Virus record (IMG/VR): IMGVR_UViG_3300028392_002123
Length of the DNA stretch: 64,000 bases
Source of the DNA: a virus
Taxonomy: Duplodnaviria; Caudoviricetes
Strand: one strand, 5' to 3'
Below are positions 17,607 to 64,000 of the stretch, one piece after another (within the stretch, counting starts at the first letter, position 1; each line of letters opens with the position of its first letter). The position numbers and the translations under genes were made by a program. The notes beneath the pieces are model-generated. The model saw only the letters and a list, made by a program, of their open reading frames with translations, was not told the DNA's origin and ran no database searches.

Positions 17607-17683
17607 TGGCGCGGTGGACGGGACTCGAACCCGCGACCCTCGGCGTGACAGGCCGATACTCTAACCAACTGAGCTACCACCGC
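17607..17683 (-). tRNA. tRNA-Asp(GTC)
   Basis: Cloverleaf, loop CT-GTC-AC, encoded CCA. Confidence 0.95.
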
Positions 17684-18311
17684 TAATCTTCTTAACTCTA
17701 ACTAAATCCAGACTGGGATTACACACTGGAATTCTAGCGTATTTAATATAAAAATTCTTTAATAATTCTAACTCTATGTCCTTGCACAAACTAGGATGCA
17801 TGGGCAAGTATGCTTGATAACATTTATCAATTAACTTAGCATCAAAGTTTTCTTTAAACGCAGTACCACAACCATAGGGACTAAGTCTATTATTTCTAAT
17901 AGTTCCTTTAAAGTCTGTGCGTCTGCCTAACATACAATTACGTGTTACTGCTCTACTTTCACCAATGTAAATAACCTGTTCAGATAAAAAATCTGCAGGT
18001 CCCGGGGGAACAGTATCTTCAAATAGTCCATATATATAACAACCTGGATGTGCTTTGTCAAAGCCCCAGGTCCTGGACCAAGGTTCGTCTATGTGATGCC
18101 AAGCTGTAAAATTTTTAAAGTCTGGCCTTACAGTAGTTTTTAGTTGTGTGACAAAATATTCAACGCCACTTAACTCAGCACACTTCCGTAGGCTATAAGC
18201 CAATTGTTCTATGTTAGAATCTTTGAATATATCATAGAGTTGGTCTTCGGTTAATCCGTGATTACCTGATCCCATTCTAATATTTTTAGCAAGTATCTGT
18301 GCGGCGTTCAT
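17661..18311 (-). CDS. GIY-YIG-like nuclease; 3' end overlaps tRNA-Asp
   Basis: GCYIYGL...VIYIGES...R...E pattern. Confidence 0.55.
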   Translation of the reverse strand: MNAAQILAKNIRMGSGNHGLTEDQLYDIFKDSNIEQLAYSLRKCAELSGVEYFVTQLKTTVRPDFKNFTAWHHIDEPWSRTWGFDKAHPGCYIYGLFEDTVPPGPADFLSEQVIYIGESRAVTRNCMLGRRTDFKGTIRNNRLSPYGCGTAFKENFDAKLIDKCYQAYLPMHPSLCKDIELELLKNFYIKYARIPVCNPSLDLVRVKKISGGSSVG

Positions 18312-18320
18312 TGTTATAAT

Positions 18321-18398
18321 TGGAGCAACGGGTAGGATTTGAACCTACGGTTTTAGGGATTTGCAATCCCTTGCATTGGGCCACTCTGCCACCGTTGC
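18321..18398 (-). tRNA. tRNA-Cys(GCA)
   Basis: Loop TT-GCA-AA, CCA. Confidence 0.93.
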
Positions 18399-18403
18399 AT
18401 TGT

Positions 18404-18478
18404 TGGTACTCGATAGGGGAATCGAACCCCTCTTTCCGGCGTGAAAGGCCAGCGTCCTAACCGATAGACGAATCGAGC
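18404..18478 (-). tRNA. tRNA-Glu(TTC)
   Basis: Loop CT-TTC-AC, CCA. Confidence 0.95.
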
Positions 18479-18495
18479 AATGATATTATTTTACA

Positions 18496-19146
18496 TTAAA
18501 TGTTTGACTGTGTCAACTGATATTTTGCAATTAGATTATCAATTAATTCTTTTTTTGGTTCAGTGTGAAATTGATACCAGATGTGTAATCTTCTATGACC
18601 TTTGGGAACATGGATATCATGCTGTATCGCTGTTTGTATCAGCACCGGAGTACTGGTAATAGGTTGATGTACAGTCAATGATTCTGTGTCGTTTCTAAAT
18701 TTCCAAAGACATTCCGGAGTTGTTTCCACAGCAATGTGTACACGAAAGGGAGTGTGATTATCCACGTGCCAGTTAAGATTTACATTAGCATGATCTTTGT
18801 ATAATAAACTTGATCTTGCTCTAGGCGGCCCTATTTCTAAGTATTCTGAAAATAACTTTCCCAGCTGTTGAATATAAGATCCCTGCAATGATCTGGGCCA
18901 ATGCACTAAATCTCTGTCATCTTCTCCTGTGGCCAGTATATGTCTACTATGAGGATTAAATTTACGTTGTCCACTGTATTTTGTAAAACTGAAATTGTCG
19001 TTGTTAAGATCTTCTAGTTGACAAGTTAGACCGCAGTCTATGCCAATCTGTGGTTTAACTATGTTATAAATCTCTTGTCGAACTTTATCAACATCAACAT
19101 TAATATCTACTAAGGGGATATAAAATTGATCTAATAGTGTATGCAT
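18496..19146 (-). CDS. Asp/Asn beta-hydroxylase-like 2OG oxygenase
   Basis: WHVDN...RVHIA...QHDI; TATAAATA at 19152-19159. Confidence 0.6.
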   Translation of the reverse strand: MHTLLDQFYIPLVDINVDVDKVRQEIYNIVKPQIGIDCGLTCQLEDLNNDNFSFTKYSGQRKFNPHSRHILATGEDDRDLVHWPRSLQGSYIQQLGKLFSEYLEIGPPRARSSLLYKDHANVNLNWHVDNHTPFRVHIAVETTPECLWKFRNDTESLTVHQPITSTPVLIQTAIQHDIHVPKGHRRLHIWYQFHTEPKKELIDNLIAKYQLTQSNI

Positions 19147-19159
19147 GGTGATATTTATA

Positions 19160-19234
19160 TGGCCGGTCCGGAGAGATTCGAACTCCCGACAGCTGGTTTC
19201 GAAGACCAGAACTCTTCCACTGAGCTACGGACCG
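19160..19234 (-). tRNA. tRNA-Arg(TCG)
   Basis: Loop CT-TCG-AA, CCA. Confidence 0.93.
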
Positions 19235-19283
19235 TACGACTTATGTTGTATATATCAATGACCAGTTATCTTTAAATAAGTGT

Positions 19284-19478
19284 ATGACTAGAACTCTTTC
19301 AATTTACGTTAATAATATATTTTGGAAAGCCATTACCATAGATGTTGCTCCAAATAATTCATACCCACTGGGCCCTATACTAGAAATGGTTAATACTGCA
19401 CGAGCCAACGGCGTTTTCAATGATTACGAAGTTAGTCCGGATCATTTTAACATACGTGTTGCGCTGTCGCATAATTAA
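19284..19478 (+). CDS. Small hypothetical protein
   Basis: 64 aa ORF 5 nt after TAAATA. Confidence 0.5.
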   Translation: MTRTLSIYVNNIFWKAITIDVAPNNSYPLGPILEMVNTARANGVFNDYEVSPDHFNIRVALSHN

Positions 19479-19503
19479 TAAGATCTAACTGTTAAATACT
19501 TGT

Positions 19504-20223
19504 ATGTTAACAGATGTAATTTATACTCCAGTGGATCCACTGGAACCTATGCCAGAAGTTGATCCTAAAAAATTTCACCAATGGATCAAAGACAATTATC
19601 CTAAAACAGCAGTCTATAGGGACATAATAATTAATAAAGGACGAACTGCATCAGGCAGGGTAGAAAATTATCCATGGGATTTAACAGTGGGTTATATGGC
19701 CAGTATGGGGTGGGTGGGCACCTTTAAAAATGAATGGCCTGAGCTAGCAGACTGGATTCCACGAGCATGGGGCATTGATATCACAGATATTGGTGTTATT
19801 ATATTTTTACCTACAAGAGAACAACAATTAGGCACAGCATTTTGGCATAATGATGCAGATCTGCATGGCCTTAGATTTTATATAGAATTTGAAGATCCAG
19901 AAAACAATACGTTGTTAATGAGAAGAACTAAAATCAAACACGAAGTTAAACCTATATATGATTATCCATTGGATACAGAAAAATATTTACAAAAAGAAAT
20001 TTTAACTTGTAATATATCAAAAAGGAATCAGGTATTCTTTTTAAACAACACATTGTCTGCTCATGCTGTACATACCAATGTACCAGGCAAGGTACGCATA
20101 GCATGTTTCATATCAATTAATACATCTAGGAATAAAAAAGTTTCTGACATTGTCTGTCCTATAATAGAACGTAGTGCAGAAAAGTATAAAGATTATTCTT
20201 TATATTGGAAACCAGAAGAGTAA
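19504..20223 (+). CDS. Cupin/2OG-Fe(II) oxygenase-like protein
   Basis: FWHND...LNNTLSAHAV. Confidence 0.55.
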   Translation: MLTDVIYTPVDPLEPMPEVDPKKFHQWIKDNYPKTAVYRDIIINKGRTASGRVENYPWDLTVGYMASMGWVGTFKNEWPELADWIPRAWGIDITDIGVIIFLPTREQQLGTAFWHNDADLHGLRFYIEFEDPENNTLLMRRTKIKHEVKPIYDYPLDTEKYLQKEILTCNISKRNQVFFLNNTLSAHAVHTNVPGKVRIACFISINTSRNKKVSDIVCPIIERSAEKYKDYSLYWKPEE

Positions 20224-20237
20224 GCCCCGAAGGGCTT
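20222..20237. terminator. Hairpin between convergent genes
   Basis: AAGCCC-CGAA-GGGCTT. Confidence 0.55.
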
Positions 20238-20838
20238 ACATGGTAGGTCCGTTGCCATTGCGAAAGCCTACACTTCCACCTTCTGCTTCAATACGTGCAA
20301 TAACGTCTTCAAATAAGATAGGTGCAAAGTCAGTTTGCTCCACGCAGACACAGTGATAGCGCACATCGGGTTCGTCGCTGTATAAGATTTCTCCTGTACG
20401 TGCGTCAACACCACGAGCCTTCTTCACGCGATTGGCATGAGTGTGTCCGTGAATGTTAACACCAAAGCGACCCATTGAGTCCGAGTGTAACGGAATATGG
20501 CTTAAGATCATTCCGTTCATAACATGGTATGCTCGTAATTCTCTAAAGTACTGCCTATACTCGTCATCACGGAAGATGTCGTGGTTACCGCGGATTAAGA
20601 CCTTGTCGCCGTTTAAGCGACTCATGATGCTTAAAGCCTTGCGGTTAATAACAACGTCACCTAAGTGGTAGACCTTATCAGTGGGCTTTACCCGTTCGTT
20701 CCACGCCTTAACCATAGCTTCGTCCATTTCCTCAGGACTATCCCATGGGCGTAACTTAGTAACACCATCGTTACGTGTGAAGCGGCAGACGCCGGTATGT
20801 CCGAAATGCGTGTCGCTAACTAAAAATACACTAGGCAT
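20236..20838 (-). CDS. Calcineurin-like metallophosphoesterase
   Basis: SDTHFGH, HLGD, GNHD, HGHTH. Confidence 0.9.
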   Translation of the reverse strand: MPSVFLVSDTHFGHTGVCRFTRNDGVTKLRPWDSPEEMDEAMVKAWNERVKPTDKVYHLGDVVINRKALSIMSRLNGDKVLIRGNHDIFRDDEYRQYFRELRAYHVMNGMILSHIPLHSDSMGRFGVNIHGHTHANRVKKARGVDARTGEILYSDEPDVRYHCVCVEQTDFAPILFEDVIARIEAEGGSVGFRNGNGPTM

Positions 20839-20860
20839 CTTGCCCTCCTTTTAAAATTAT

Positions 20861-20889
20861 ATTATACACTATTATGACTTTGATGTCAA
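20861..20889 (-). promoter_or_regulatory. sigma70 consensus promoter
   Basis: TTGACA-17-TATAAT, followed by AGGAGG SD. Confidence 0.85.
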
Positions 20890-20893
20890 TTAT

Positions 20894-20969
20894 TGGTACC
20901 AAGAGTCGGAATCGAACCGACCACACACGGATTTTCAATCCGTTGCTCTACCTACTGAGCTATCTTGGC
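20894..20969 (-). tRNA. tRNA-Phe(GAA)
   Basis: Loop TT-GAA-AA, CCA. Confidence 0.95.
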
Positions 20970-20978
20970 ATTATTGAA

Positions 20979-21190
20979 TTTGTAAGTAGTTGCTCCATCG
21001 TTATAGCAACCATTCACCCATGTATATAAAGCCGGCTGGGACTCGGTACGTCACTTGGGATACTAGTCCAGTTAGCAACCAATCTGCGGAGATCTTCCGA
21101 TCTCCCGGGAGTTGAACCCGTCCCCTTTTACTATTTTGGTAGTTCGAACTTACCTAGATAGCGTGACATTCTCTTGCTGACACTTACAAA
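20979..21190 (-). ncRNA. Candidate structured ncRNA between tRNA-Ser and tRNA-Phe
   Basis: Terminal 9-bp stem TTTGTAAGT/ACTTACAAA plus several internal hairpins; no ORF. Confidence 0.6.
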
Positions 21191-21193
21191 ACT

Positions 21194-21283
21194 TGGCGGA
21201 AGCGGTGAGATTCGAACTCACGGCCCACTTTCGTGAACGACGGTTTTCAAGACCGTTGCCATAGACCACTCGGCCACACTTCC
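21194..21283 (-). tRNA. tRNA-Ser(TGA)
   Basis: Loop CT-TGA-AA, long variable arm, CCA. Confidence 0.95.
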
Positions 21284-21288
21284 TGATT

Positions 21289-21362
21289 TGGCGTCCCGCC
21301 AGGGACTCGAACCCCGACCAACGGTTTTGGAGACCGTTATGCTGCCATTACACCAGCGAGAC
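21289..21362 (-). tRNA. tRNA-Trp(CCA)
   Basis: Loop CT-CCA-AA, CCA. Confidence 0.95.
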
Positions 21363-21368
21363 ATTAAT

Positions 21369-21460
21369 TGGTACCCCCGGCGGGAATCGAACCCACATGA
21401 ACCAATTATCTGTTGCTTACGGGATATAAATCCGCCGTTTTACCGTTAAACTACAGGGGC
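21369..21460 (-). tRNA. Atypical tRNA-Ile(TAT) with 22-nt variable arm
   Basis: Acceptor GCCCCTG/CGGGGGT, normal D and T arms, loop TT-TAT-AT, CCA. Confidence 0.7.
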
Positions 21461-21465
21461 ATATT

Positions 21466-21542
21466 TGGTGCCGCAACCTGGACTCGAACCAGGGACCTTT
21501 CGCTTATCAAGCGAATGCTCTAACCAACTGAGCTATTGAGGC
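21466..21542 (-). tRNA. tRNA-Ile(GAT)
   Basis: Loop TT-GAT-AA, CCA. Confidence 0.95.
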
Positions 21543-21551
21543 AATATAAAC

Positions 21552-21627
21552 TGGGGTGAAGGATGGGACTCGAACCCACAACAACTGGAATCACAATCCA
21601 GGGCTCTACCATTGAGCTACCGACACC
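21552..21627 (-). tRNA. tRNA-His(GTG)
   Basis: Loop TT-GTG-AT, G-1, CCA; two acceptor mismatches. Confidence 0.9.
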
Positions 21628-21644
21628 AAAAGATAAATAATTTT

Positions 21645-22220
21645 ATGTACTGTTTCCACTTAAACTTAGATCTAGCACCTTTTAAATTTAAATTTAACTA
21701 TAAAGATTACTTGCCTCCATTTGGAAAAACAAGTAATGTAGTTAAATTTAATCTCGTCGACATAAATCCAGAACTTGTAGAATTATTAGCCGAGCGCAAT
21801 ATAAAAATTGGCTGGGCTGAAATGTTTATTAAACATCCTCATATGACAGTAAATGAACAAATACACATCGATGAATTTCGAGGAGACTTTGTTAAATTAA
21901 ATTGGGTCTGGGGAGGAACCGGAAGCACTATGAGATGGTTCCGAGAACTTGATCCTGCAAAAAAATTAACACCATCAAGCAATCAAATCAACAGTCCTTA
22001 TCTAGGATTCAGTATCAATGATGTTGTTCTAGAACATGAAGAAGCACTTAGTGGACCGTGTATAATACAAGTTGGTGTTCCACATAATGTTGTCATGGGC
22101 ACTGATATGAGATGGGCATTGAGTTTTGTATTATTGGATATCACTGGTAATACCAGTGCTCGACGAAGATTATCAATGCCACAAGCTTTGGAAAACCTAA
22201 GCAATCTACGCAAAGCATAA
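21645..22220 (+). CDS. Cupin/2OG-Fe(II) oxygenase-like protein (start moved to MYCFHL)
   Basis: IHIDE...KLNW...MRWF...PHNV; ATAAATA just upstream; similar to 5646 and 6341 ORFs. Confidence 0.6.
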   Translation: MYCFHLNLDLAPFKFKFNYKDYLPPFGKTSNVVKFNLVDINPELVELLAERNIKIGWAEMFIKHPHMTVNEQIHIDEFRGDFVKLNWVWGGTGSTMRWFRELDPAKKLTPSSNQINSPYLGFSINDVVLEHEEALSGPCIIQVGVPHNVVMGTDMRWALSFVLLDITGNTSARRRLSMPQALENLSNLRKA

Positions 22221-22407
22221 ACTTCCGTATAATTAACGATATGCTTTTTCTTATTAAGTAATTTAATAAGGAAAAACACTATGCGTAGAAAAAAATGGAT
22301 TGACAGAGTATCAGATATCTATCAATCAACAAAGCGAATTAATAGAAGAAGAAACTAAAAGTATACGAGCTCAAGAAAGAAAATCTTTCCTAGCTAGAAC
22401 GTTCAAA

Positions 22408-22482
22408 TGGTGGTGATAGTTGGATTTGAACCAACGACCGGCCGCGTATGAAGCGGATGCACTACCACTGTGCTATATCACC
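22408..22482 (-). tRNA. tRNA-Met(CAT), probably elongator
   Basis: Loop TT-CAT-AC, paired 1-72, CCA. Confidence 0.88.
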
Positions 22483-22637
22483 ATAAGGCGGGAGCCCAAC
22501 TATCCGGGTGGCCCGGCCTTGCTGGATTGTCTCGAATAGTCAAGTCAACTAAACTACAACCATACTATAGTGTCACCGCAGTTAACCCTACTGTGGCTAG
22601 GTTGGCAAGGACTCAAAACTATCGTCTATCCCAAAAC

Positions 22638-22715
22638 TGGCACCCATGGAAGGATTCGAACCTCCGACTCCCTGCTTCGTAGGCAAGTACTCTAGTCCAA
22701 CTGAGTTACACGGGT
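22638..22715 (-). tRNA. tRNA-Arg(ACG)
   Basis: Loop CT-ACG-AA, CCA. Confidence 0.93.
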
Positions 22716-22718
22716 ATA

Positions 22719-22794
22719 TGGTAGGACGTACTGGATTCGAACCAGTGACCAATGGATTAAAAGTCCACTGCTCTACCAACTGAGCTAACGTCCC
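22719..22794 (-). tRNA. tRNA-Lys(TTT)
   Basis: Loop CT-TTT-AA, CCA. Confidence 0.95.
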
Positions 22795-22799
22795 GTAAC

Positions 22800-22873
22800 T
22801 GGCACCCGGAGTAAGAATCGAACTTACAATAGCAGAGTCAAAGTCTGTTGTGTTACCACTACACTATCCGGGA
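22800..22873 (-). tRNA. tRNA-Gln(TTG)
   Basis: Loop CT-TTG-AC, CCA. Confidence 0.93.
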
Positions 22874-22880
22874 ATTAATA

Positions 22881-22956
22881 TGGTACTCCGTGGGGGAATC
22901 GAACCCCTCGTTTGCGCCTTGAAAGGGCACCGTCCTAACCGTTAGACGAACGGAGC
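22881..22956 (-). tRNA. tRNA-Glu(TTC), second copy
   Basis: Loop CT-TTC-AA, CCA. Confidence 0.93.
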
Positions 22957-22961
22957 AAAAT

Positions 22962-23047
22962 TGGTGGAGGCGGATGGATTCGAACCACCGCGCTTTTTAC
23001 AGAACAGATTTACAGTCTGCCGCCTTCAGCCACTCGGCCACACCTCC
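22962..23047 (-). tRNA. tRNA-Tyr(GTA)
   Basis: Loop CT-GTA-AA, long variable arm, CCA. Confidence 0.95.
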
Positions 23048-23050
23048 ATA

Positions 23051-23241
23051 ACACACTCTTTCGAATGTGTGTATTAAAGCACACTAGCCGCTCTGTTTCT
23101 TCTGTATGCCTACAGATTGTATCCATTCGTCTAATATGCTTTAATACGCTGTAATTTTTCATCTCACAAAAGAGACTCTATCCTACAGGCCGCCCGTTTC
23201 CCCATGTTTTAAGTGCGGGGTGAGCCCTCGTTGCTCCACAC
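23051..23241 (-). ncRNA. Candidate structured ncRNA leading the tRNA operon
   Basis: 11-bp stem 23071-81/23137-47, GAAA- and GGCA-capped hairpins. Confidence 0.55.
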
Positions 23242-23244
23242 TAT

Positions 23245-23281
23245 AAAAACAAAAACCCTGGAGTTTTTAGTTCCAGGGTCC
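23245..23281 (-). terminator. Attenuator-type intrinsic terminator
   Basis: minus strand GGACCCTGGA-ACTAAAAAC-TCCAGGGT-TTTTGTTTTT. Confidence 0.8.
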
Positions 23282-23312
23282 TTGAAGTTTTGAAATGTAT
23301 TAAGTTGTTTAC

Positions 23313-23423
23313 TTAACCATCCCATCCCTCCCGGACCCTGATATTAATCTCGCGGTCAAAGCAAAGCATTGACCAATATATGGAATGCTGTGAGCTAAGA
23401 TTAAAAAGTTTGTTGTTCATCAT
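23313..23423 (-). CDS. Putative leader peptide, 36 aa
   Basis: MMNNKLFNLSSQHSIYWSMLCFDREINIRVREGWDG; ATG 7 nt after a consensus -10. Confidence 0.6.
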   Translation of the reverse strand: MMNNKLFNLSSQHSIYWSMLCFDREINIRVREGWDG

Positions 23424-23430
23424 AGTGTGT

Positions 23431-23459
23431 ATTATACAGTTATTTATCTTTTATGTCAA
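23431..23459 (-). promoter_or_regulatory. sigma70 consensus promoter of tRNA operon
   Basis: TTGACA-17-TATAAT. Confidence 0.85.
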
Positions 23460-23482
23460 TTAAATCTTTAATTTTGGTAAAA

Positions 23483-24127
23483 TTACTTGACAAAATTTAC
23501 TTCTATTTTTTGTTTTGGAAAAGTGATGTAGTTGAAGTTTTCATTGACTTGATGCTGTGTGCGTTGTTTGTTTGGATCAGGAAATCCAATACCCAGTAAC
23601 AATAGCACTCCGCCTTCAGTGCCCAGAACTTTTTGTACTTTTGGGCCGTCGAAACAACCGCAGTAGCCAGTGGAATAGCCTAGCAAGTTCGCTGTAAGGT
23701 TCAAGTATCCAGATGCAATGCCCAAGGAGACTTCTCTGTCATTGTACAAAGCGTCGGGCACTCTTTCGTTGTCTTTTTCTAACCATGCCATTTGATCATT
23801 GCGATGTACACCTTCGTGTAAAACTGGTGTGACCATTTGATCTTCAAAAACCACTAACAAATTTGCCAATGTTTGTGTGTTTGTTTCGACAATATTTTTT
23901 TCCCTGTTAACTGTAAATCCATTGGTTAACCCATGTATAGTTTCAATGATATTTCTGTTAGTTATGAAATGACACTTATAGTAAGCTACGTTTTGTTTAC
24001 TGGGACATTGTGTAACTGCTGATACTAGTGTATCTAGATCTGCTTGCGGAATAGACTTAGTCAAATCCCAATTACGTTGGCAATGTTGACTTTTTTCAAT
24101 TATGGTTTCGATGTCATTGTTTGTCAT
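23483..24127 (-). CDS. Nitroreductase family protein
   Basis: SQHCQRNWD...QCPSKQN...ANLLGYSTGYCGC. Confidence 0.75.
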   Translation of the reverse strand: MTNNDIETIIEKSQHCQRNWDLTKSIPQADLDTLVSAVTQCPSKQNVAYYKCHFITNRNIIETIHGLTNGFTVNREKNIVETNTQTLANLLVVFEDQMVTPVLHEGVHRNDQMAWLEKDNERVPDALYNDREVSLGIASGYLNLTANLLGYSTGYCGCFDGPKVQKVLGTEGGVLLLLGIGFPDPNKQRTQHQVNENFNYITFPKQKIEVNFVK

Positions 24128-24138
24128 TGTATCTCCTA

Positions 24139-25056
24139 TTAACTAATATCTAATTTGTTATTTACAATGAAGGACATCAAAGATTTATTAGATCTCAGCA
24201 CCGTATTAGTCATCGATGATTCGGTGGATCCCACCGGCATCAGTCCTAGATTAAATACAGTTTCTTTAAATTCTTTATTTTTAAAAACACTGATTGCATC
24301 ACTGACAATTTTTTCTTTCATTGATTTACTCATTGATTTGGCTACCACTAAGCAAATATAACTTTGGTAAGGAAAAGATTCTTTAAAATATTTGTCCCAC
24401 GTAAGTATGTTATCTCCCATGTCGTGGCTGGCAAATAATATACTAACACGGCTGTCTCCGATAAAAGGTTTGACACTTGAATAGTTGCCAAATGTACAGT
24501 CTACTTGCCCTGCTAGAACATCCATGGCGCCTTTATTACCTCCACTGGGATAAGGAACGATAATGTGTTTTCCCTGAGCACGTACAAACAATGCTTCAGT
24601 GGCAATATGTTCTGAGCTACCATAGCCGTTGACTGCAAAACTTAGAGATTTTTTTGTGTTTAAAAACTCGTTGAACGTTGTGATACCCAGACCAGCTCTG
24701 CAAGCTAACAAATTAGGAAGTACAGCCACTGTTCCTAAAATTTCTAAATCTCGTTCAGTGTCGTATTCTAAGTCTTTATAATTTAAAGTGTTAGTGACAT
24801 AAATCTGTGGCATAGTGGCCATGAGCACACTTTCACCTTTGAGTACTTGTTTCATTGCCAGTCTGCCGGCCGCACCCGGACGATTCATAACAATATAATC
24901 TTCTATTGAGAGATTCTTGACTATCAGTCTAGTAATTCTATCACTGGGACCGCCAGGAGCATGATGCACAGTATACTCAATAATCGATGCAGGCTTTGCA
25001 CAGACAGAGAAAATTACCAGTGATATCACTAGTAAAAATTTAATTGTATTCTTCAT
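24139..25056 (-). CDS. Bug/TctC tripartite tricarboxylate transporter solute-binding protein
   Basis: Signal peptide, PGGPSD..TR, NRPGAAG, H.A.E, VPY..GG...DVLAGQVD. Confidence 0.85.
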   Translation of the reverse strand: MKNTIKFLLVISLVIFSVCAKPASIIEYTVHHAPGGPSDRITRLIVKNLSIEDYIVMNRPGAAGRLAMKQVLKGESVLMATMPQIYVTNTLNYKDLEYDTERDLEILGTVAVLPNLLACRAGLGITTFNEFLNTKKSLSFAVNGYGSSEHIATEALFVRAQGKHIIVPYPSGGNKGAMDVLAGQVDCTFGNYSSVKPFIGDSRVSILFASHDMGDNILTWDKYFKESFPYQSYICLVVAKSMSKSMKEKIVSDAISVFKNKEFKETVFNLGLMPVGSTESSMTNTVLRSNKSLMSFIVNNKLDIS

Positions 25057-25079
25057 ATATCTACTTATAAGCCAAGGCC

Positions 25080-26240
25080 TTAAGTTGCATACTGCGGCAA
25101 CAGGCCTGGTATTGGACCTAAGTCATAAAACTTATGGAAATGTTTTAAACCATCCCCGCTGTCATTGACAAAATCAGACAAGGTAGTATTGACATATTCA
25201 ATGCCCTCTCTCCAAATATTAACAGCCTTTGTGTGGGAGTATCCGTCTTTGAACCATAAATCGAATTCACTGTACCAGTCTGATGTAGATTTATCTGCTT
25301 GCCACCAATTGGTATCCCATGTTGAATATATCACACTTCTTAGCACTCGTTCGTGAATCAAACGAACTTTTTCATGTGTGATGTTGGGTGCATACCAGTG
25401 TTCTTGCATGTGAGGATTGGCCGCCAAATATTTTTTAATTACATGCCCCTGCTTTATCAATAAAGGAACACAGTCGGGGCTCCAATAAAAGAATTCAGCC
25501 ATGGCATTTGGATATTCTCTAAAATGCTCAGCTACTGTATTTTGATTAGCGGCACGATCTACAAAGCGCATCAATAGTTTACCATCGGCAATGGCTACCC
25601 TGGGTTTTTCAATGCCGATTATCATGCATATCTTTTTATCTTTATCGAATTGTTTTCTCACGTCTGCTAGAGCCAGATAATTGAAACGTGTGGCACCTGC
25701 AGGATTTATACCTTCGCGTTTGGTAAGAACCCAACTAGCATCTCCAGTGCCTTCCATAAAATCAAATAAATGATCACTTAGGTCAGCCACAGTAATTTTT
25801 GTTTTAGGTATCAGCGGTGCAATCTCTTTTAACCTAGGCATAGTCTGCAGATAGTGTTCTGCACCAGCGTTTTTTGCATCCATGTTTGCAGGATTTAAAT
25901 CGATGAACTGTTTACTGGCTTTTTCAAAATGATTAACAACTATTTCATCTACGTGCAGGCCTTGACGCACAAAGCTCATTAGAATATTGTTACTGTCTGC
26001 TCCGCCACTATAACTTATCATAACATAGTCATATCGTTCTCGTAGCTGTCGAGCTCGTCGATTATATAGTTCATCCAATGATTCTTCGGGCTCAACAGCC
26101 CAGTTATAAGAATCGAATACTCTGTCATTAAAAATCCAATTAACTGGTTTATTAACTTGAGTACTATGTAGACATGCTAAAATTTTTGAAGTGAATTCTT
26201 TGCCATCGCAGACATAGAATCCTAACTCTCTGTTGATCAT
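25080..26240 (-). CDS. PP-loop ATPase-like protein
   Basis: ISYSGGADSNN, GIEKP, FFYWS. Confidence 0.65.
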   Translation of the reverse strand: MINRELGFYVCDGKEFTSKILACLHSTQVNKPVNWIFNDRVFDSYNWAVEPEESLDELYNRRARQLRERYDYVMISYSGGADSNNILMSFVRQGLHVDEIVVNHFEKASKQFIDLNPANMDAKNAGAEHYLQTMPRLKEIAPLIPKTKITVADLSDHLFDFMEGTGDASWVLTKREGINPAGATRFNYLALADVRKQFDKDKKICMIIGIEKPRVAIADGKLLMRFVDRAANQNTVAEHFREYPNAMAEFFYWSPDCVPLLIKQGHVIKKYLAANPHMQEHWYAPNITHEKVRLIHERVLRSVIYSTWDTNWWQADKSTSDWYSEFDLWFKDGYSHTKAVNIWREGIEYVNTTLSDFVNDSGDGLKHFHKFYDLGPIPGLLPQYAT

Positions 26241-26286
26241 TGATTGTTCTCGGTAAATATTTTGCTACAATATTTAGTGAGCTATA

Positions 26287-27225
26287 ATGAAATCTGGATT
26301 TGAAAATAACAAGTTTTACGTCGAATATACCAGCCCTGGCCGGAAGATTGGTAATATGCGCGAAGAGCTTGATCTAGCGGTTAAAACAATTTCCGATTCT
26401 AGTGGCGACAAGTTACTGTTAGGTCTTAGCAGTGGCTTGGACAGTCAAGTAATACTACACAGTCTACACGAACAAGGTTTGCCATATACCTGTGCATTTT
26501 TATACATGCCAGGATACAATGATCATGAATACAACAATGTAAAAGTTTTGGAAAAGAAATATGGTTTCAATGCATTGATAGCTGAAATCGATCCTGCCAA
26601 AGAAAAAGATGAAGTATTAGACCAAGCCTATTCTCAGCACATACTTCCCAATCATTTCATGCATAAAAAGTTTTTATCATTGTTGCCCGCGGACATGGAT
26701 TACTTGAACGGTATCGAAGGACCCGACATTGTGATGAATGAAGAATCTGGTAAAAGATATATCATGGAGGCCCATTGGAATTTTGAAAATACTAGACTAA
26801 GAACATTGCGTAGCTTAGATAGGTCAGGCAAAGTATTAAACATTGATCGTAACGAAACCAGTGAAGCGTTCTTACTCAGTATAATCAACGATGCTGTATT
26901 CAGAGGTTATATCAACAGTATTCGTTATATTTTACACAATGACCTTGTTGACGGATCAGGTAAAAAGCCGGGCATTATATTCAACTACAATTATTATATC
27001 AAACCCATCATCATGGGAAGATACTGGGGTCATGAGCTATTGTATTTCCCAAAATCTATGGGCGTGGAAAAAATAGATTGGATTATGAACTGTCCCATTA
27101 AAAGTACATATAGTCGAGATGTTGTTCACACTGAATATTATACTCTGAGAAAATTCTTGTTACAAGATAAAGTAGATGTACTGAGAATGGAAGACAAATT
27201 GCCTACATCAGAGGCCCACAGTTAA
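26287..27225 (+). CDS. PP-loop-like protein
   Basis: LGLSSGLDSQ; paralog of 16184..17095. Confidence 0.6.
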   Translation: MKSGFENNKFYVEYTSPGRKIGNMREELDLAVKTISDSSGDKLLLGLSSGLDSQVILHSLHEQGLPYTCAFLYMPGYNDHEYNNVKVLEKKYGFNALIAEIDPAKEKDEVLDQAYSQHILPNHFMHKKFLSLLPADMDYLNGIEGPDIVMNEESGKRYIMEAHWNFENTRLRTLRSLDRSGKVLNIDRNETSEAFLLSIINDAVFRGYINSIRYILHNDLVDGSGKKPGIIFNYNYYIKPIIMGRYWGHELLYFPKSMGVEKIDWIMNCPIKSTYSRDVVHTEYYTLRKFLLQDKVDVLRMEDKLPTSEAHS

Positions 27226-28140
27226 TTCTTCTACAATCTGTTTAACTGGTTTAATACTAGTAATATGATCTATTGCACCACCAGCAAAGACGTGTCCTTC
27301 GTTGGGACTTTGAATACCTTTTGCTAGTCCGTATGTATTATTTTCTATGTCAAGAGCAGTTTTACTAAACAAAAAACCACTTTGGTTTGCTGTTCCTATT
27401 TTTACAGTTTCCGAGTAGGATGATTCTAACATTTTCTTTTTAGTTTCCAGCGACACAACTGATTCTTCCGACACCGCAAAAACTGTGCCGAGACTGACAA
27501 TATTCGCACCTGCAGAAAGATGTTCTTTTATTCCCTGACTGTCATATATTCCGCCTTGTGCTATAATAATCCAATTTGGTTTTAACAAACGTAAAGCACG
27601 TATAGCTTCTACTAGATCAAATGTTGTCGAAGAAACTCTACCTGCACCTTTATCACCTTTGAGTATGATACCATCTAAGGAATTCATAACATTTGAATTT
27701 TTATTCAAATGTTCGATCACAGTTTCAAATGAAAGGAATTTACCTAGTACCTTAGTTCCATTTTCTTGAACTTGTTTTAATAATCTAGGAAAACGTGGAT
27801 CTGTGACAAAGTAGTTGTCAAACATTTCTATGTACGCTGGCTTTAACTCTAAGATAATTTTAAATGTTTCTGTGGAATCAGTGAAAATAGGTGTGTTAAG
27901 TCCTAGTATAAAATCCGAATCACCTACTTTGTTTATATAGTATGTTAGATGTTCTCTTAGAACTTTTGGATCGTATATAAAAGTAGATCCTGTTTGAACA
28001 GTATGATTAAATGTAACAAAACTGGGATAACATCCTGTTTCTTTGACTGCCAGTGCCAACTTGACGTTGGACACAGTGGTCATCCCGGAACAGATAATGG
28101 GATACTTAGAATTAAAATTATTTTGATGATCTGTGTACAT
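27208..28140 (-). CDS. Nitronate monooxygenase / FabK-like FMN oxidoreductase (start moved to MYTDHQ)
   Basis: PIICSGM, G..GAG, IIAQGGI, GA..V.LGT.F; TATAAATA at 28148-28155. Confidence 0.75.
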   Translation of the reverse strand: MYTDHQNNFNSKYPIICSGMTTVSNVKLALAVKETGCYPSFVTFNHTVQTGSTFIYDPKVLREHLTYYINKVGDSDFILGLNTPIFTDSTETFKIILELKPAYIEMFDNYFVTDPRFPRLLKQVQENGTKVLGKFLSFETVIEHLNKNSNVMNSLDGIILKGDKGAGRVSSTTFDLVEAIRALRLLKPNWIIIAQGGIYDSQGIKEHLSAGANIVSLGTVFAVSEESVVSLETKKKMLESSYSETVKIGTANQSGFLFSKTALDIENNTYGLAKGIQSPNEGHVFAGGAIDHITSIKPVKQIVEELTVGL

Positions 28141-28176
28141 ATGAAAATATTTATAGCACACTATCATCTATAATAT

Positions 28177-28253
<77 letters not shown>

Positions 28254-28261
28254 ATTTAAAT

Positions 28262-28471
28262 TTATTTGTTAGGTCTAATCTTTAAGAGATAGTCTCGGCC
28301 AACATGGCCTTCTTCGACTTCTCTTAGAGCTGTAACTGTTTTACTAGGACTAGGTTTAACCATTGGTGTTGCACCGGCGTACAATTCTCTAACTCGTAAC
28401 GAAGCTACTAGAACTAAATCAAATCTATTTCCAATTTGCTCGACTGCTTTTTCACTTGTAATTCTTGCCAT
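28262..28471 (-). CDS. rpoZ: RNA polymerase omega subunit
   Basis: [27 protein letters not shown]...K.TVTALREV. Confidence 0.9.
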
Positions 28472-28491
28472 GATAAACCTTATTAAAAAAA

Positions 28492-28750
28492 TGCTCTGGC
28501 ATCCCTCGGCGGTAATTATAGTGTATCAGAAATTTCGTCAAGTTGCCCCAACTAGTCTATTCATCACCTCCACCTCCACCCGCTTCCCGACAGGAACCGT
28601 TCTCGTATTGCCAACGCCGGTTAGGTTGAACCGCACATACATCCATGTTCTATCATGGCCTCTGTGTGAAACTTTTCGTTTCAGAACCACCCGTGTGTGT
28701 CATCACACTTCTCATCGTCTGGGTCAGACTATCCAGTGACGCTGGAACGT
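28492..28750 (-). ncRNA. Candidate structured ncRNA between tRNA-Ser(GCT) and rpoZ
   Basis: GC-rich, at least 8 short hairpins, no credible minus-strand ORF. Confidence 0.55.
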
Positions 28751-28752
28751 TT

Positions 28753-28840
28753 TGGCGGAGCATGTAGGAATCGAACCTACTCACCCATTGCTGAATGACA
28801 GATTAGCAATCTGTTGCCTTAACCGGTCGGCCAATGCTCC
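28753..28840 (-). tRNA. tRNA-Ser(GCT)
   Basis: Loop TT-GCT-AA, long variable arm, CCA. Confidence 0.95.
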
Positions 28841-28847
28841 TTAAACT

Positions 28848-28931
28848 TGGTGCGAGAGGCGGGACTCGAACCCGCATGCCTTTCGACGGGAGATTTTAAG
28901 TCTCCTGAGTATACCATTTCTCCACTCTCGC
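28848..28931 (-). tRNA. tRNA-Leu(TAA)
   Basis: Loop CT-TAA-AA, long variable arm, CCA. Confidence 0.95.
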
Positions 28932-28998
28932 AATAAAACTATTATAACAGGTTATTTATATGTTGTCTACTTCTTTTTTTATTTAATTTAAAATAATT

Positions 28999-29076
28999 TG
29001 GTGGGCCCCCGGAGAGTCGAACTCCGCACCAATGGATTATGAGTCCACTGCTCTAACCAACATGAGCTAGAGGCCC
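28999..29076 (-). tRNA. tRNA(CAT), Ile2 (lysidine) type likely
   Basis: GGGCCTCT start, loop CT-CAT-AA, resembles ileX-type bodies; CCA. Confidence 0.8.
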
Positions 29077-52601: not shown

Positions 52602-53136
52602 TTACTTTCCCTTGATATAGTGTAGCCGTAATCCTATTGCCTTGTAGTTCGCTCTTGCCTTCTACTTTGGCGCTGGGCATTTCTGCTAGAATATTATTTA
52701 AGATTTCGAAACCAGTTCCTGTATTGGCCATTTCTCTTCCTCTAAATTTAATAATAATCCTTACTTTGTCACCTTCTTCTAACCATTCCTTGATGTGTTT
52801 CATTTTAACATCAAGATCGTGAGTATCAATTGCTGGGCGAATTTGAACTTCTTTAATATCTACGCGATTTTCTCGTGCTTTTTTATTCTGTTCTTTTTCC
52901 CGTTTTTGTAAATCATATTTGTATCTTCCCACATCTCCGATTTTACATATAGGGGGATTTGACTGTGGATTAATCAAGATTAAATCTAATGATTGATCTG
53001 CCGCTTGATCTAACGCTTTAAAGAAAGGATAGATACCAAGATTAGCACCATCGGCACCGATCAGTCTTACTTCCCTTGCTCGTATTTCTCTATTAGACAG
53101 GATTCTGTTTTCGTGTCTTCTTTCGTTCATTGCCAT
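52582..53136 (-). CDS. infC: Translation initiation factor IF-3
   Basis: N.EIRA.EVRLI, PPICKI.D.G.YKY, KEV..RP.ID.HD, FRGRE. Confidence 0.95.
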   Translation of the reverse strand: MAMNERRHENRILSNREIRAREVRLIGADGANLGIYPFFKALDQAADQSLDLILINPQSNPPICKIGDVGRYKYDLQKREKEQNKKARENRVDIKEVQIRPAIDTHDLDVKMKHIKEWLEEGDKVRIIIKFRGREMANTGTGFEILNNILAEMPSAKVEGKSELQGNRITATLYQGKVNDKKTV

Positions 53137-54328
53137 ATACTAAAATGGGCTCACTTCCTTGGGTAATTGTTTCTTCTGTGATACAAACTTTTGTAACATT
53201 ATTTGCTGCCAAATCCGGCAGTACAAATTGGGTTTTGAGCAGTACGTACTCTAATTCTGATCTGAGGCCACGTGCGCCTAATTTTTTGGTTATGCATGAT
53301 TTAGCTATAGCATAACAGGCTTTGGTGTCTATGTCAAGCTCAACATCATCCATTTTGAATAGTGCTTTGAATTGGCTAATAATGTTATTTTTTGGTTCGG
53401 TTAAGGCCCTAACTAATTGCTCCTCTGTCAAATCTTCTAATACTGTAATCTTAGGCAATCGTCCTACTAGCTCAGGAATCATTCCCCATTTAATTATATC
53501 GTCGGGAATAACACTGGTTAGTTCTGTAGTGGTTTTATCAACCGTTGCTCCAAATCCAATAGTACTTTGTTTATTCAAACGTTTTGCTATTATACTTTCT
53601 AATCCAGAAAAGGCGCCACCTAGAATAAACAAAATGTTTTTTGTATCAATGGTCAACATTTCATTGCCGGGGTGTTTGCGGCCGCCTTGTTGTGGCACAC
53701 GACATTCTGTGCCTTCAATGATCTTTAATAGTGCTTGTTGAACGCCTTCTCCACTGACATCGCGGCTAATACTAGCACCTTCACTTTTGCGTCCTTTTTT
53801 ATCTATTTCATCTATGTAGATAATACCAGTTTCTGTTTTTTCAATGTTTTGACCTGATGCTTGGTACAATTTATGAATAACGTTTTCTACGTCTTCGCCT
53901 ACATAACCTGCTTCAGTTAAACTTGTAGCATCTGTAATGGCAAAAGGAACATCTAAGAATTTTGCAATAGTTTTTGCCAGCAATGTCTTGCCACTGCCTG
54001 TTGGGCCTATCAACAATACGTTACTTTTTTCAATCTCTACATCTGATTTATTGAACAGTCTTTTGTAATGATTGTAAACAGCAACGCTTAATGTTAGTTT
54101 GGGTAGGTCTTGACCGATAACGTATTGGTCCAAGTGTTGAAATAATTCCCTGGGTGTGGGAAGTTTCTTATCGTTTTTTGTTAATTCCGGATCGTCTTTG
54201 ATTACTTCATTGCACAGTTTGATACATTCATCGCAGATATATCCGGTGGCACCTGCTACTAATTTTTTTACTTCATTCTGGCTTTTTTCACAAAAGCTAC
54301 ACGACAATAATTTTTTAGATTCAGTCAT
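53093..54328 (-). CDS. clpX: ATP-dependent Clp protease ATPase ClpX
   Basis: CSFC..C..C zinc finger, GPTGSGKT, YVGEDVE, RDVSGEGVQ, GGRKHP, IGF. Confidence 0.97.
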   Translation of the reverse strand: MTESKKLLSCSFCEKSQNEVKKLVAGATGYICDECIKLCNEVIKDDPELTKNDKKLPTPRELFQHLDQYVIGQDLPKLTLSVAVYNHYKRLFNKSDVEIEKSNVLLIGPTGSGKTLLAKTIAKFLDVPFAITDATSLTEAGYVGEDVENVIHKLYQASGQNIEKTETGIIYIDEIDKKGRKSEGASISRDVSGEGVQQALLKIIEGTECRVPQQGGRKHPGNEMLTIDTKNILFILGGAFSGLESIIAKRLNKQSTIGFGATVDKTTTELTSVIPDDIIKWGMIPELVGRLPKITVLEDLTEEQLVRALTEPKNNIISQFKALFKMDDVELDIDTKACYAIAKSCITKKLGARGLRSELEYVLLKTQFVLPDLAANNVTKVCITEETITQGSEPILVYGNERKKTRKQNPV

Positions 54329-61492: not shown

Positions 61493-61999
61493 TTAGCTAT
61501 TCAATACTTTGGCCACAGAGTTCATTACACTGGCAATACGCCCAATGTCACGAAGTTGTTCTACTGTATAACCTTCCTTCTTCAATGTTTCGTAGTGCGC
61601 CTTAACACAGAAGTGACACTTGCCAACGATTGATGCGGCAAGACTGAACGCTTCAAAGTTTGACTTGGTAGTTCCACCATGACTAGCGATAGCGTTCATA
61701 CGAAGCTGTGCTGGCAATCCAGTTAGGTTAGCATCGTCTGCCATTTCAACATATGGATACCATACATTGTTCTGTGCCATGATACTTGCGGCTGTCATTG
61801 CTGACTCTGCATGTACTGGAGCATCTGCTAATAGTATGCTTAAAACTTTGCCGTTACCAGTAGCGGCCAATGCGGCTACAGCACAACCTATAGCTACATC
61901 AGCATCTAGTGTACTACGCAAAAGGACTGCGTCCAAGTTTAACTTGGTATCCTTTGCGTAGTCTGGCAACGCACCTTTAATAGTGTCGTTGAATGCCAT
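61493..61999 (-). CDS. ahpD: Alkylhydroperoxidase AhpD
   Basis: LPDYAKD.KLNL, SI.GKCHFCVKAH. Confidence 0.88.
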   Translation of the reverse strand: MAFNDTIKGALPDYAKDTKLNLDAVLLRSTLDADVAIGCAVAALAATGNGKVLSILLADAPVHAESAMTAASIMAQNNVWYPYVEMADDANLTGLPAQLRMNAIASHGGTTKSNFEAFSLAASIVGKCHFCVKAHYETLKKEGYTVEQLRDIGRIASVMNSVAKVLNS

Positions 62000-62000
62000 A

Positions 62001-62558
62001 TTATAGAGTCTCCCCGCCTACTGTACGGTTACATGCACATAGTTCGCCAGTTTGCAATGCGTCTAATACACGCAATGTTTCTTCTGGGCTACGACCAACG
62101 TTCAAATTGTTTACAGTAACGTGTTGGATAACGTTGTCTGGGTCAACAATAAATGTTGCACGTAGTGCGGCACCTGCTGGAGCATAAAATACGCCCAGTT
62201 GTTCAATCAGGCTCAAACTATCACCAGTGTTTGAGTCATATCGTTGTGTGTCGGCAAACTGATGATGCGTGATTTTACGCAGGTCGTCGTGTGACTTTTG
62301 CCATGCTACTTTGCAGAACTCATTGTCTGTGCTACCTGTTAGTAGGACTGCATCACGGTCAGCAAAGTCGCTGGCTAGTTTGTCATAGGCCACAATCTCT
62401 GTAGGACAAACGAATGTAAAGTCCTTGGGATAGTAAACGATTACCTTCCACTTGCCTTCAAAGCTTTGTTCTGTGATTGTATAAAAAGCATCTTCTGGTT
62501 GTCCTGGCTTAACACCTGTTACTGCAAATGCTGTTAATTTATCTCCAACTGTTTTCAT
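62001..62558 (-). CDS. ahpC: Peroxiredoxin AhpC
   Basis: YPKDFTFVCPTE, RATFIVDP, GR...E.LR.LDALQ. Confidence 0.93.
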   Translation of the reverse strand: MKTVGDKLTAFAVTGVKPGQPEDAFYTITEQSFEGKWKVIVYYPKDFTFVCPTEIVAYDKLASDFADRDAVLLTGSTDNEFCKVAWQKSHDDLRKITHHQFADTQRYDSNTGDSLSLIEQLGVFYAPAGAALRATFIVDPDNVIQHVTVNNLNVGRSPEETLRVLDALQTGELCACNRTVGGETL

Positions 62559-63463: not shown

Positions 63464-63513
63464 GATAAAATCCTTTAAAAAGTGTATTGTAATTATTTAT
63501 CATTTAAACAATA

Positions 63514-64000
63514 AGAAACCCGCCGAAGCGGGTTCTGAGTTTCTGTTACGAGGTATGTCTTACCCTAAGCGGAGTTTAGGCCGCTAAAGCGAACTGTTCG
63601 TCGTTTGCATTTACGTTTTTTGTGTCTTCGACCGGGTTCCCCCAATCCTAACGGCTTCTACATTGCCGGACTGTCCATTTCATTACTCTTGACCCTGTCG
63701 AAACCATGGCAGGCCCATCATAAGAAAACTCAATTAAATGTCATATGACCGGTTGCGTATAATACTGCCATTACAGGACCAGCTATATGCTCTCCGATTT
63801 CATACAACGCCCATACAGTTAGCGCCACTGCCCACCATGGATTAGATTCCGCTTTTTGACCTAACCAGGTAAAAAACTTTCCATGAGCACGACCAATTGC
63901 ATTTGCAAATTTAACTATCATAACAAACTTCCTTATGGTGGACCTGGCGGGAGTCGAACCCGCGTCCAGAATGCCTTCACTTTGAAGGGATTACAACTAT
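63514..64000 (-). ncRNA. ssrA: Circularly permuted (two-piece) tmRNA gene; 5' end may lie just outside the window
   Basis: Acceptor piece ending T-arm + CAGGTCC-A-CCA (63936) precedes coding piece GGGCCTG (63716); G3.U70; tag ANDEQFALAA* at 63576-63608; terminator 63514-63537. Confidence 0.92.
63730..63921 (-). CDS. 63-aa hydrophobic ORF inside the tmRNA intervening segment
   Basis: TAAGGAAG SD directly after CCA; ORF fills the intervening segment. Confidence 0.6.
   Translation of the reverse strand: MIVKFANAIGRAHGKFFTWLGQKAESNPWWAVALTVWALYEIGEHIAGPVMAVLYATGHMTFN

Follow-up and report, generated by a model that had tools for sequence, protein, structure and literature searches.

A two-piece tmRNA gene from an uncultured freshwater phage with a small protein gene in its intervening segment

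The genes for two-piece tmRNAs are permuted, in that an acceptor piece is followed by an intervening segment (IVS) and then by the coding piece, and their transcripts are cleaved by tRNA-processing enzymes (PMC11915505). A preliminary description of the locus analysed here had placed such tmRNAs in bacteria; that stands, but they are not confined to bacteria, since two-piece tmRNA genes are already known from aquatic phages, such as OM43 phage Melnitz and the pelagimyophages (PMC9004378). A census of 11,946 permuted tmRNA sequences published in 2025 singled out as 'unique' one IVS bearing a tRNA-Ala, while the longest permuted tmRNA gene, of 1152 bp, has a repetitive element in its IVS; where homing endonuclease genes (of the LAGLIDADG type) occur in tmRNA genes, they are confined to group I introns of the T-loop (PMC11915505). 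In a different stable RNA, the 23S rRNA of Coxiella burnetii, the IVS contains an S23p ORF which is apparently not made in vivo, the excised RNA being quickly degraded (PMC4990558).

The DNA examined here, referred to as the window, is a stretch of 64,000 nt from the viral record IMGVR_UViG_3300028392_002123 (Caudoviricetes). At its far end, on the minus strand, lies a permuted two-piece tmRNA gene with the following features.

63506-64000, minus strand: permuted two-piece tmRNA (ARAGORN call and Rfam RF04321)
63936-64000, minus strand: acceptor (3') piece (Rfam alignment, ARAGORN and sequence)
63936-63938, minus strand: CCA (sequence)
63717-63935, minus strand: IVS of 219 nt, absent from the mature tmRNA (between CCA and G1)
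63924-63935, minus strand: 5' strand of the IVS closing stem, holding the Shine-Dalgarno (SD) sequence AAGGAAG at 63928-63934 (pairs with 63721-63732 in the minimum-free-energy fold)
63730-63921, minus strand: 63-aa ORF, P0001 (ORF list and translation)
63717-63732, minus strand: 3' strand of the closing stem (63721-63732) and leader UGAU (63717-63720) (covariation)
between 63717 and 63716, minus strand: predicted RNase P site
63506-63716, minus strand: coding (5') piece (Rfam alignment and ARAGORN)
63576-63608, minus strand: tag reading frame, with resume codon GCA, tag ANDEQFALAA and stop UAA (ARAGORN; the Rfam alignment ends at UAA)
63506-63535, minus strand: intrinsic terminator, an 8-bp GC-rich stem (63516-63535) and a U-rich tail (terminator scan)

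The preliminary description had read an acceptor piece ending in CCA at 63936, a 219-nt spacer consisting almost entirely of an SD sequence and a Trp-rich 63-aa ORF, and a coding piece starting at G63716 and encoding the tag ANDEQFALAA; all of these positions hold on the minus strand, and the spacer is indeed little more than AAGGAAG and the ORF (63730-63921, with five Trp). The acceptor piece contains one P2 strand, the T-arm (63947-63963), the acceptor 3' strand CAGGUCC (63940-63946) and ACCA (63936-63939), and its 5' end lies at about the last base of the window, the probable transcription start being judged from the promoter of the related contig L160, described below. The coding piece comprises the acceptor 5' strand GGGCCUG (63710-63716), the D-loop-like GGUUUCGAC, a P2 strand, a hairpin, the tag frame, a 3' region and the terminator. 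The order is permuted, with the CCA piece upstream of the piece that begins with the acceptor 5' strand (G1 at 63716), and the features of alanine identity are all in place: a 7-bp acceptor stem in which GGGCCUG pairs with CAGGUCC, the G3.U70 pair (intact, as had been noted), a discriminator A and an encoded CCA. The tag frame has an Ala resume codon, a hydrophobic end (...LAA) and a stop. ARAGORN calls a permuted tmRNA with the tag ANDEQFALAA, and the Rfam model RF04321 (tmRNA_permuted), which covers the tRNA domain and a single hairpin, agrees, scoring 117.2 bits where the gathering score is 47 (E 3.2e-22) over 63576-63998, with positions 1-213 of the 213 in the model aligned.

With the model for the betaproteobacterial-type two-piece tmRNA (RF01850, cut-off 84 bits) the window gave no match. 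Compact relatives score 101-156 bits with this model, as does contig L164 (106.5 bits), whose sequence does not differ from that of the window in the acceptor piece, in the IVS or in the opening 25 nt of the coding piece; contig L159 matches the alpha-type model rather than RF01850. No intron family, Intron_gpI included, reached its Rfam gathering score in the window; the T-loop is uninterrupted, and the insert lies between CCA and G1.

Contig L160, which is identical to the window over 63692-64000, continues beyond it into a sigma70-type promoter (TTGACT-17-TATAAT) that ends 6 nt before the base matching window position 64000, so the window lacks only the promoter; a promoter is read in contig L162 as well. 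At the other end of the gene, the same hairpin terminator follows the tmRNA in a further relative, L008. Related contigs reach 200-380 kb. In a collection of cultured phages only short matches, to the acceptor piece, were obtained, a 494-aa window protein found nothing there, and four of the seven largest window proteins have no PHROG family, which together indicate that there is no close cultured relative; the source is thus an uncultured freshwater phage related to jumbo-phage contigs. The window phage also encodes ClpX, and ARAGORN finds 20 tRNA genes elsewhere in the window.

The locus resembles the permuted tmRNA genes of bacteria and aquatic phages in its acceptor-IVS-coding order, G3.U70 pair and ...ALAA tag (PMC9004378; RF04321 and RF01849-51, PMC11915505), and those of aquatic phages also in being carried by a phage from an aquatic source. 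It differs from them in that its IVS is a complete, SD-led protein gene, whereas the IVSs described are treated as non-coding; the feature remarked on in Melnitz was a glutamine riboswitch and not an IVS gene. The IVSs bearing a tRNA-Ala or a repeat likewise hold extra cargo in the excised segment of a permuted tmRNA gene (PMC11915505), but these are single cases, while the cargo found here consists of protein genes, is recurrent (see below), and has its SD and stop in the closing stem. As in tmRNAs with group I introns (PMC11915505), a protein gene lies within the tmRNA gene and is absent from the RNA once mature. In those genes it sits in a self-splicing intron of the T-loop and encodes the intron's own mobility enzyme; here it is an ordinary small gene in the gap between CCA and G1, and there is no intron. 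Protein genes also share transcripts with tRNAs, as in the E. coli thrU-tyrU-glyT-thrT-tufB operon and among the small ORFs of the phage T4 tRNA cluster. There too the protein gene is separated by RNase P and 3' processing, but the ORF stands beside complete RNA genes, and not between two halves of one RNA that pair across it. The Coxiella 23S rRNA IVS is similar in having an ORF in a stem-closed segment excised from a stable-RNA precursor, and dissimilar in being rRNA, excised by RNase III, and occupied by a single, decaying S23p family (PMC4990558). In the present family the host RNA is tmRNA, tRNA-type processing is expected, an SD is present and there are many unrelated intact ORFs; P0001 itself has no significant Pfam family and is not an S23p member. 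The rRNA IVS ORFs are therefore an analogue, not a relative, of those described here. The preliminary description knew of no account of such an arrangement, and full-text searches, confined to papers outside subscription, likewise found no published report of a protein gene in a tmRNA IVS. We place the locus in the permuted tmRNA family, in which the content of its IVS is of a new kind.

We consider it probable that the locus is an intact two-piece tmRNA gene of a phage, with an IVS that would serve as a slot for the expression of small protein genes. The nesting on which this reading depends is observed in independent data. Single short contigs from three DNA runs, belonging to three studies, span approximately 63710-63951 and cross both junctions with 0-1 mismatches; contig X12, from an RNA (metatranscriptome) library that could contain carried-over DNA, crosses both as well and spans 63692-63952. 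Looking up the exact protein returned 12 contigs, and all eight of those listed, from eight samples, have the ORF nested in tmRNA_permuted (69-132 bits), although retrieval by exact protein match makes these IVS-resident copies, which are nearly identical at the nucleotide level, a biased sample. In a metagenome junction scan, which gave contigs that end inside the ORF, two further contigs hold the junction of ORF and coding piece.

An assembly chimera is ruled out by the single contigs that cross both junctions together with the eight nested contigs from eight samples. More broadly, the notion that the locus is an artefact or a pseudogene, arising from chimeric assembly of co-occurring strains or from inactivation of a tmRNA by insertion, would account for the many contigs that break in or beside the ORF (L034, L036, L156 and L157), for an RF04321 score below that of compact relatives (117 versus 148 bits), and for an ORF depth 10-40 times lower than that of the tmRNA pieces in the same runs. 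It is nevertheless very improbable, given that the short contigs (three DNA runs and one RNA library) and the eight longer ones are concordant, that the insert is exactly at the natural position of the IVS, and that every tmRNA element is intact. In the same runs, other contigs link both tmRNA pieces while skipping about 200 nt, which together with the lower ORF depth indicates that co-occurring relatives share the tmRNA halves and differ in their spacers. Two acceptor 5' halves occur mixed with two coding pieces across contigs, and some of these combinations may be assembly mosaics; cofolding of all combinations of acceptor half and coding piece, in search of mispairing in P2, did not tell one from another. 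The same tRNA-like domain and ORF were also found with different mRNA-like domains, having tags of 10 aa and 27 aa, and with different neighbouring genes.

The 63-aa ORF is, as judged by comparative sequence analysis, a real gene under selection. An ORF of this length has a probability of 0.002 in mononucleotide shuffles of the spacer interior. Homologues are present in 36 viral contigs, with 76-92% amino acid identity, and the complete ones all have 63 codons and align without gaps. The median dN/dS for 25 unique coding sequences, mostly from copies outside tmRNA, is 0.063, with 0.03-0.09 against relatives, which supports the coding function attributed earlier to the spacer; in comparisons with the window, synonymous sites are saturated (pS 0.6-0.9) and pN is 0.05-0.17. 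Variable sites at the first, second and third codon positions number 25, 17 and 59 of 63, respectively, and 32 residues, including the motifs NPWW, EH-IAGP and GH, are invariant among 20 sequences. AlphaFold2 predicts a helical hairpin (pLDDT 93.4; helices 2-26 and 28-56), and the hydrophobic character of the second helix suggests that P0001 may be a small membrane protein. Its only Pfam match, at 14.6 bits, is under the cut-off, it has no PHROG, and a homologue search and the ESM Atlas returned hypothetical viral proteins only.

In most relatives the gene is not in a tmRNA at all. At 33 full-length viral loci it lies outside any tmRNA, and in 18 of these a compact two-piece tmRNA, in most cases matching both RF01850 (up to 156 bits) and RF04321, is found 0.3-1.5 kb downstream of the ORF; 12 have no tmRNA within the examined flank of approximately 2.2-3 kb, and the flanks of the remaining three are too short to tell. 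The flanks of these outside copies are unrelated to those in the window and frequently have no SD. At locus L008 a promoter close to consensus is followed by the ORF, by a pair of small ORFs, and then by the tmRNA with the same terminator. Directly upstream of the ORF in L001, L004-L006 and L018 is a gene ending ...IYRERxCY, and in L034 and L036 this same gene is followed by an acceptor piece and then by the ORF, so that tmRNA and ORF were formerly neighbours. Within this uncultured freshwater phage group the 63-aa gene is conserved and ordinary, and in the window lineage it appears to have ended up between the tmRNA halves, captured into the slot.

The preliminary description had proposed a dedicated coupling, in which tmRNA maturation frees the IVS as a mini-mRNA and so ties the amount of this membrane protein to the capacity for ribosome rescue. 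It is true that a single promoter and a single terminator serve both the ORF and the tmRNA, that the arrangement persists in at least nine assemblies, and that the phage-encoded ClpX fits an investment in the tagging pathway. The gene's location outside tmRNA in 33 relatives, 12 of them without tmRNA in the examined flank, argues against such a tie, and so does the use of the same slot by at least 22 unrelated genes; in addition, the closing stem of an excised IVS would still enclose the SD, and the 3' end of such an RNA would be unprotected. We therefore regard a specific link between this protein and rescue as improbable, and the earlier interpretation as a whole as partly supported.

The wider use of the slot emerged from a scan of viral contigs with the acceptor 3' end, which gave at least 119 stretches and, with the known loci, at least 132 acceptor matches. 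Among the matches listed, 108 have a coding piece downstream, and they yield 88 unique IVSs of 53-273 nt. The short ones among them are plain hairpins. In 21 of the 25 unique IVSs of at least 115 nt from the matches listed, one ORF fills 79-94% of the segment; when the IVS interior is shuffled by mononucleotides, the longest ORF reaches 33-45%. The filling ORFs begin 7-15 nt after CCA. About 30% of the 88 unique IVSs from the matches listed have a filling ORF led by an SD, and an SD-like 5' flank is associated with the presence of an ORF (odds ratio 11, Fisher p = 1.3e-6, again among the matches listed). The SD-led ORFs, at least 27 in number and 22-84 aa long, represent no fewer than 22 unrelated families. 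Of the 27 found among the matches listed, 11 contain a strongly hydrophobic run of 17 aa or more; one occupant is a true thioredoxin with the WCGPC motif (PF00085, 75.4 bits), and a second can be assigned to phrog_13558 (E 1e-12). In 19 of 23 ORF-bearing loci the tmRNA is called by ARAGORN as intact and permuted, with a canonical tag. The smallest IVS ORFs, of 22-37 codons, have pN/pS values of 0.24-0.73, which indicate weak constraint but rest on few sites and have low power.

The nearest coding pieces to that of the window among the matches listed belong to loci L053, L046 and L063, the acceptor ends of which are 94-98% identical to it. In L053 the coding piece is 91.5% identical and the 84-nt IVS has no ORF; in L046 it is 86% identical and the IVS holds a different ORF of 68 aa; and in L063, with the same tag and 83.5% identity, there is yet another ORF, of 59 aa. 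All three match the window up to the SD flank and resume at the 3' strand of the stem, with unrelated interiors between. That homology stops and resumes at the closing stem indicates cassette replacement, and cargo is probably exchanged by recombination in the conserved tmRNA halves; part of the mosaic pattern of the tmRNAs could be assembly error. The Xanthomonas jumbo phage XacN1, which also has a permuted tmRNA, was considered as a ready test system for the ORF slot and rejected, its 113-nt IVS being non-coding. The IVS of locus L020 looks tRNA-like.

A covarying stem closes these segments. Across the 88 unique IVSs from the matches listed, the stem joins the 11 positions that follow CCA (+1 to +11) to positions -5 to -15 ahead of G1. 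Pairs form in 94% of cells, most positions show three to six pair types, and the ORF-bearing subset is 92% paired; sliding the partner strand by 1-3 bases gives 41-62%, and dealing the 3' flanks among the sequences gives 64%. The frequent G.U and U.G pairs suggest that the structure is one of RNA and not an inverted repeat in the DNA. The leader at positions -4 to -1 reads U(G/A)A(U/C) in all 88 unique IVSs from the matches listed and partly pairs with ACCA, as does UGAU in the window; C74 is unpaired in all. In 25 of 33 IVS-filling ORFs the URA of the leader, 1 nt before G1, is the stop codon, a share that arises partly by construction, in that the ORF definition ignored frames running into the coding piece. 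The stop of the window ORF lies 13 nt before G1, and in a fold of 63690-63998 the IVS is closed by the acceptor stem and by CAUAAGGAAG paired with UUUUCUUAUG.

The sequence of events proposed for such a gene begins with a single precursor, transcribed from one sigma70-type promoter and comprising acceptor piece, IVS, coding piece and terminator. The ends of the IVS would pair and lengthen the 7-bp acceptor stem by approximately 11 bp, the 5' strand carrying the SD and the 3' strand ending in UGAU before G1. Ribosomes would most likely load on the SD co-transcriptionally, before the 3' strand, approximately 200 nt downstream, exists, and would translate the 63-aa helical-hairpin protein; a ribosome terminating at or near the stem may keep the acceptor strand open. 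Closure of the stem would then hide the SD, and the tRNA-like domain could form. From what is established for the processing of tRNA and tmRNA, cleavage ahead of G1 would fall to RNase P, and CCA would be exposed by an endonuclease together with 3' trimming, to give a two-piece tmRNA while the IVS is discarded. What we infer is that the ORF is translated from within the IVS, when this takes place, and which enzymes process the precursor. As to origin, the gene, found just upstream of the tmRNA in most relatives, would have been taken into the slot in the window lineage, and related phages would swap unrelated small genes into and out of it, probably by recombining in the conserved tmRNA halves. 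The swapping of unrelated genes through the slot implies that the coupling consists in shared transcription, and not in a dedicated rescue link.

Two observations run counter to expression from the slot: the SD is sequestered in the closing stem, so that an excised IVS would tend to hide it, and the Coxiella 23S rRNA IVS offers an analogy in which the ORF is apparently not made in vivo (PMC4990558). Both would be expected if the ORF were a silent passenger in a tolerant excised region, untranslated and decaying there, with the IVS degraded after excision, and so would the weak constraint on the smallest IVS ORFs and the near identity of the IVS-resident copies, among which selection is not measurable. 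Such a passenger is rather unlikely, given that the ORF is intact and identical in at least nine assemblies, with no frameshifted remnant seen, that IVSs with an ORF more often have an SD-like flank (p = 1.3e-6), that ORFs fill the IVS far above chance, and that the IVS thioredoxin (75 bits) retains WCGPC. A permissive expression slot remains the most likely description of the IVS. It is also conceivable, though doubtful, that the closing stem, which combines a built-in SD with a U(G/A)A stop lying a single base ahead of the RNase P site, has been shaped by evolution into a device and is more than a place that tolerates inserts, such that translation of the cargo and maturation of the tmRNA are mutually exclusive for each precursor: a ribosome on the IVS would hold the stem and the acceptor strand open, and closure would end translation and license processing. 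If so, the ratio of small protein to rescue RNA would be set by the free ribosomes in the infected cell, and the conserved tmRNA halves would double as homology arms for the exchange of cargo between co-infecting phages.

The IVS, usually treated as disposable, thus appears to act also as a messenger in this family of phage tmRNAs, and the main interest lies less in this single gene than in the recurrence of a slot whose closing stem includes both SD and stop. For RNA biology it would be a natural case of one transcript that serves as mRNA and then folds into a stable RNA; for phage evolution, a new hot spot for the shuffling of small genes, bounded by conserved RNA halves. The whole unit, promoter included, is approximately 550 bp and so is directly testable in a laboratory bacterium. 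There are also consequences for annotation, where gene callers overlook ORFs in the IVS or call false genes in the tmRNA, as with the 37-aa 'genes' called in the coding piece of the nested contigs.

The 63-aa gene that lies in the intervening segment (IVS) of the window's permuted tmRNA gene also occurs outside any tmRNA, and one such locus, L008, provides it with a promoter of near-consensus sequence (TTGACA and TATAAT, separated by 18 nt):

L008:2964-3003, near-consensus promoter of the 63-aa gene

The end of this promoter is only 6 nt upstream of the ATG, and the gene has no Shine-Dalgarno sequence, which together suggest from sequence that its mRNA in L008 is leaderless. In two further loci, L010 and L012, the gene is followed directly, just after position 3192, by a GC-rich terminator hairpin, the same one that terminates the tmRNA gene elsewhere; it looks as if the tmRNA has been lost from the transcription unit there, or was never acquired.

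Within the window, the conserved leader immediately 5' of G1, the first nucleotide of the coding piece, also resembles a promoter, with TATGAT (TATAAT in many relatives) and ATGACA 16 nt upstream of it, scoring 10/12:

window 63717-63744 (-), conserved promoter-like leader preceding G1

Since transcription from this site would start within the acceptor strand, we read the motif as reflecting a constraint on the leader rather than a promoter.

The IVS of a related tmRNA, in L020, is predicted to fold into a tRNA-like cloverleaf (z = -3.1) that has D- and T-arms (the latter with loop UUCGAGG), a long acceptor-like stem and an oversized anticodon loop:

L020:3937-4032, 96-nt IVS, from the predicted fold

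ARAGORN made no tRNA call for this 96-nt segment, which resembles the IVS-located tRNA-Ala described as unique (PMC11915505).

In several tmRNAs of related phages the predicted tag is unusually long, at 27-31 residues (L160:2086-2172, and also L158, L039, L070, L095 and L140); one of these tags begins AKANTFEYFQ and ends EIAA; relatives with the same tRNA-like domain have 10-residue tags. At another locus, a tmRNA tag region continues into the end of a cold-shock-domain gene (its 3' part), with another permuted tmRNA gene coming immediately afterwards:

L161:4300-4505, tmRNA tag region running into cold-shock-domain gene

This arrangement is either a true recombinant or tandem, or else an assembly chimera.

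Tags of the ssrA type ending in LAA are recognised by the unfoldase ClpX. The window tag ends in ALAA and the phage encodes a ClpX homologue, so that tagging RNA and tag reader may both be carried by this phage. Nearer the tmRNA are two redox genes, and the tmRNA IVS of L094, another phage of the family, holds a thioredoxin, so that a redox theme around the tmRNA locus is possible:

window 53093-54328 (-), ClpX homologue (zf-C4_ClpX, 61.6 bits; AAA_2, 103.5 bits)
window 61493-62558 (-), AhpC/TSA peroxiredoxin (73 bits) and CMD/AhpD-like protein (39 bits), roughly 1 kb downstream from the tmRNA

The window's clustered tRNA genes include two for tRNA-Met, two for tRNA-Ile (one with anticodon UAU), two for tRNA-Glu and three for tRNA-Arg, and none with anticodon CUA. 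Related contigs do have such amber-suppressor-type tRNAs, labelled Pyl by ARAGORN, close to their tmRNA, and Xanthomonas phage XacN1 has two:

window 17607-29076 (all -), 20 clustered tRNA genes
L040:5061-5137, L046:6981-7055, L063:1932-2007 and L166:319-477, CUA-anticodon tRNAs (ARAGORN)
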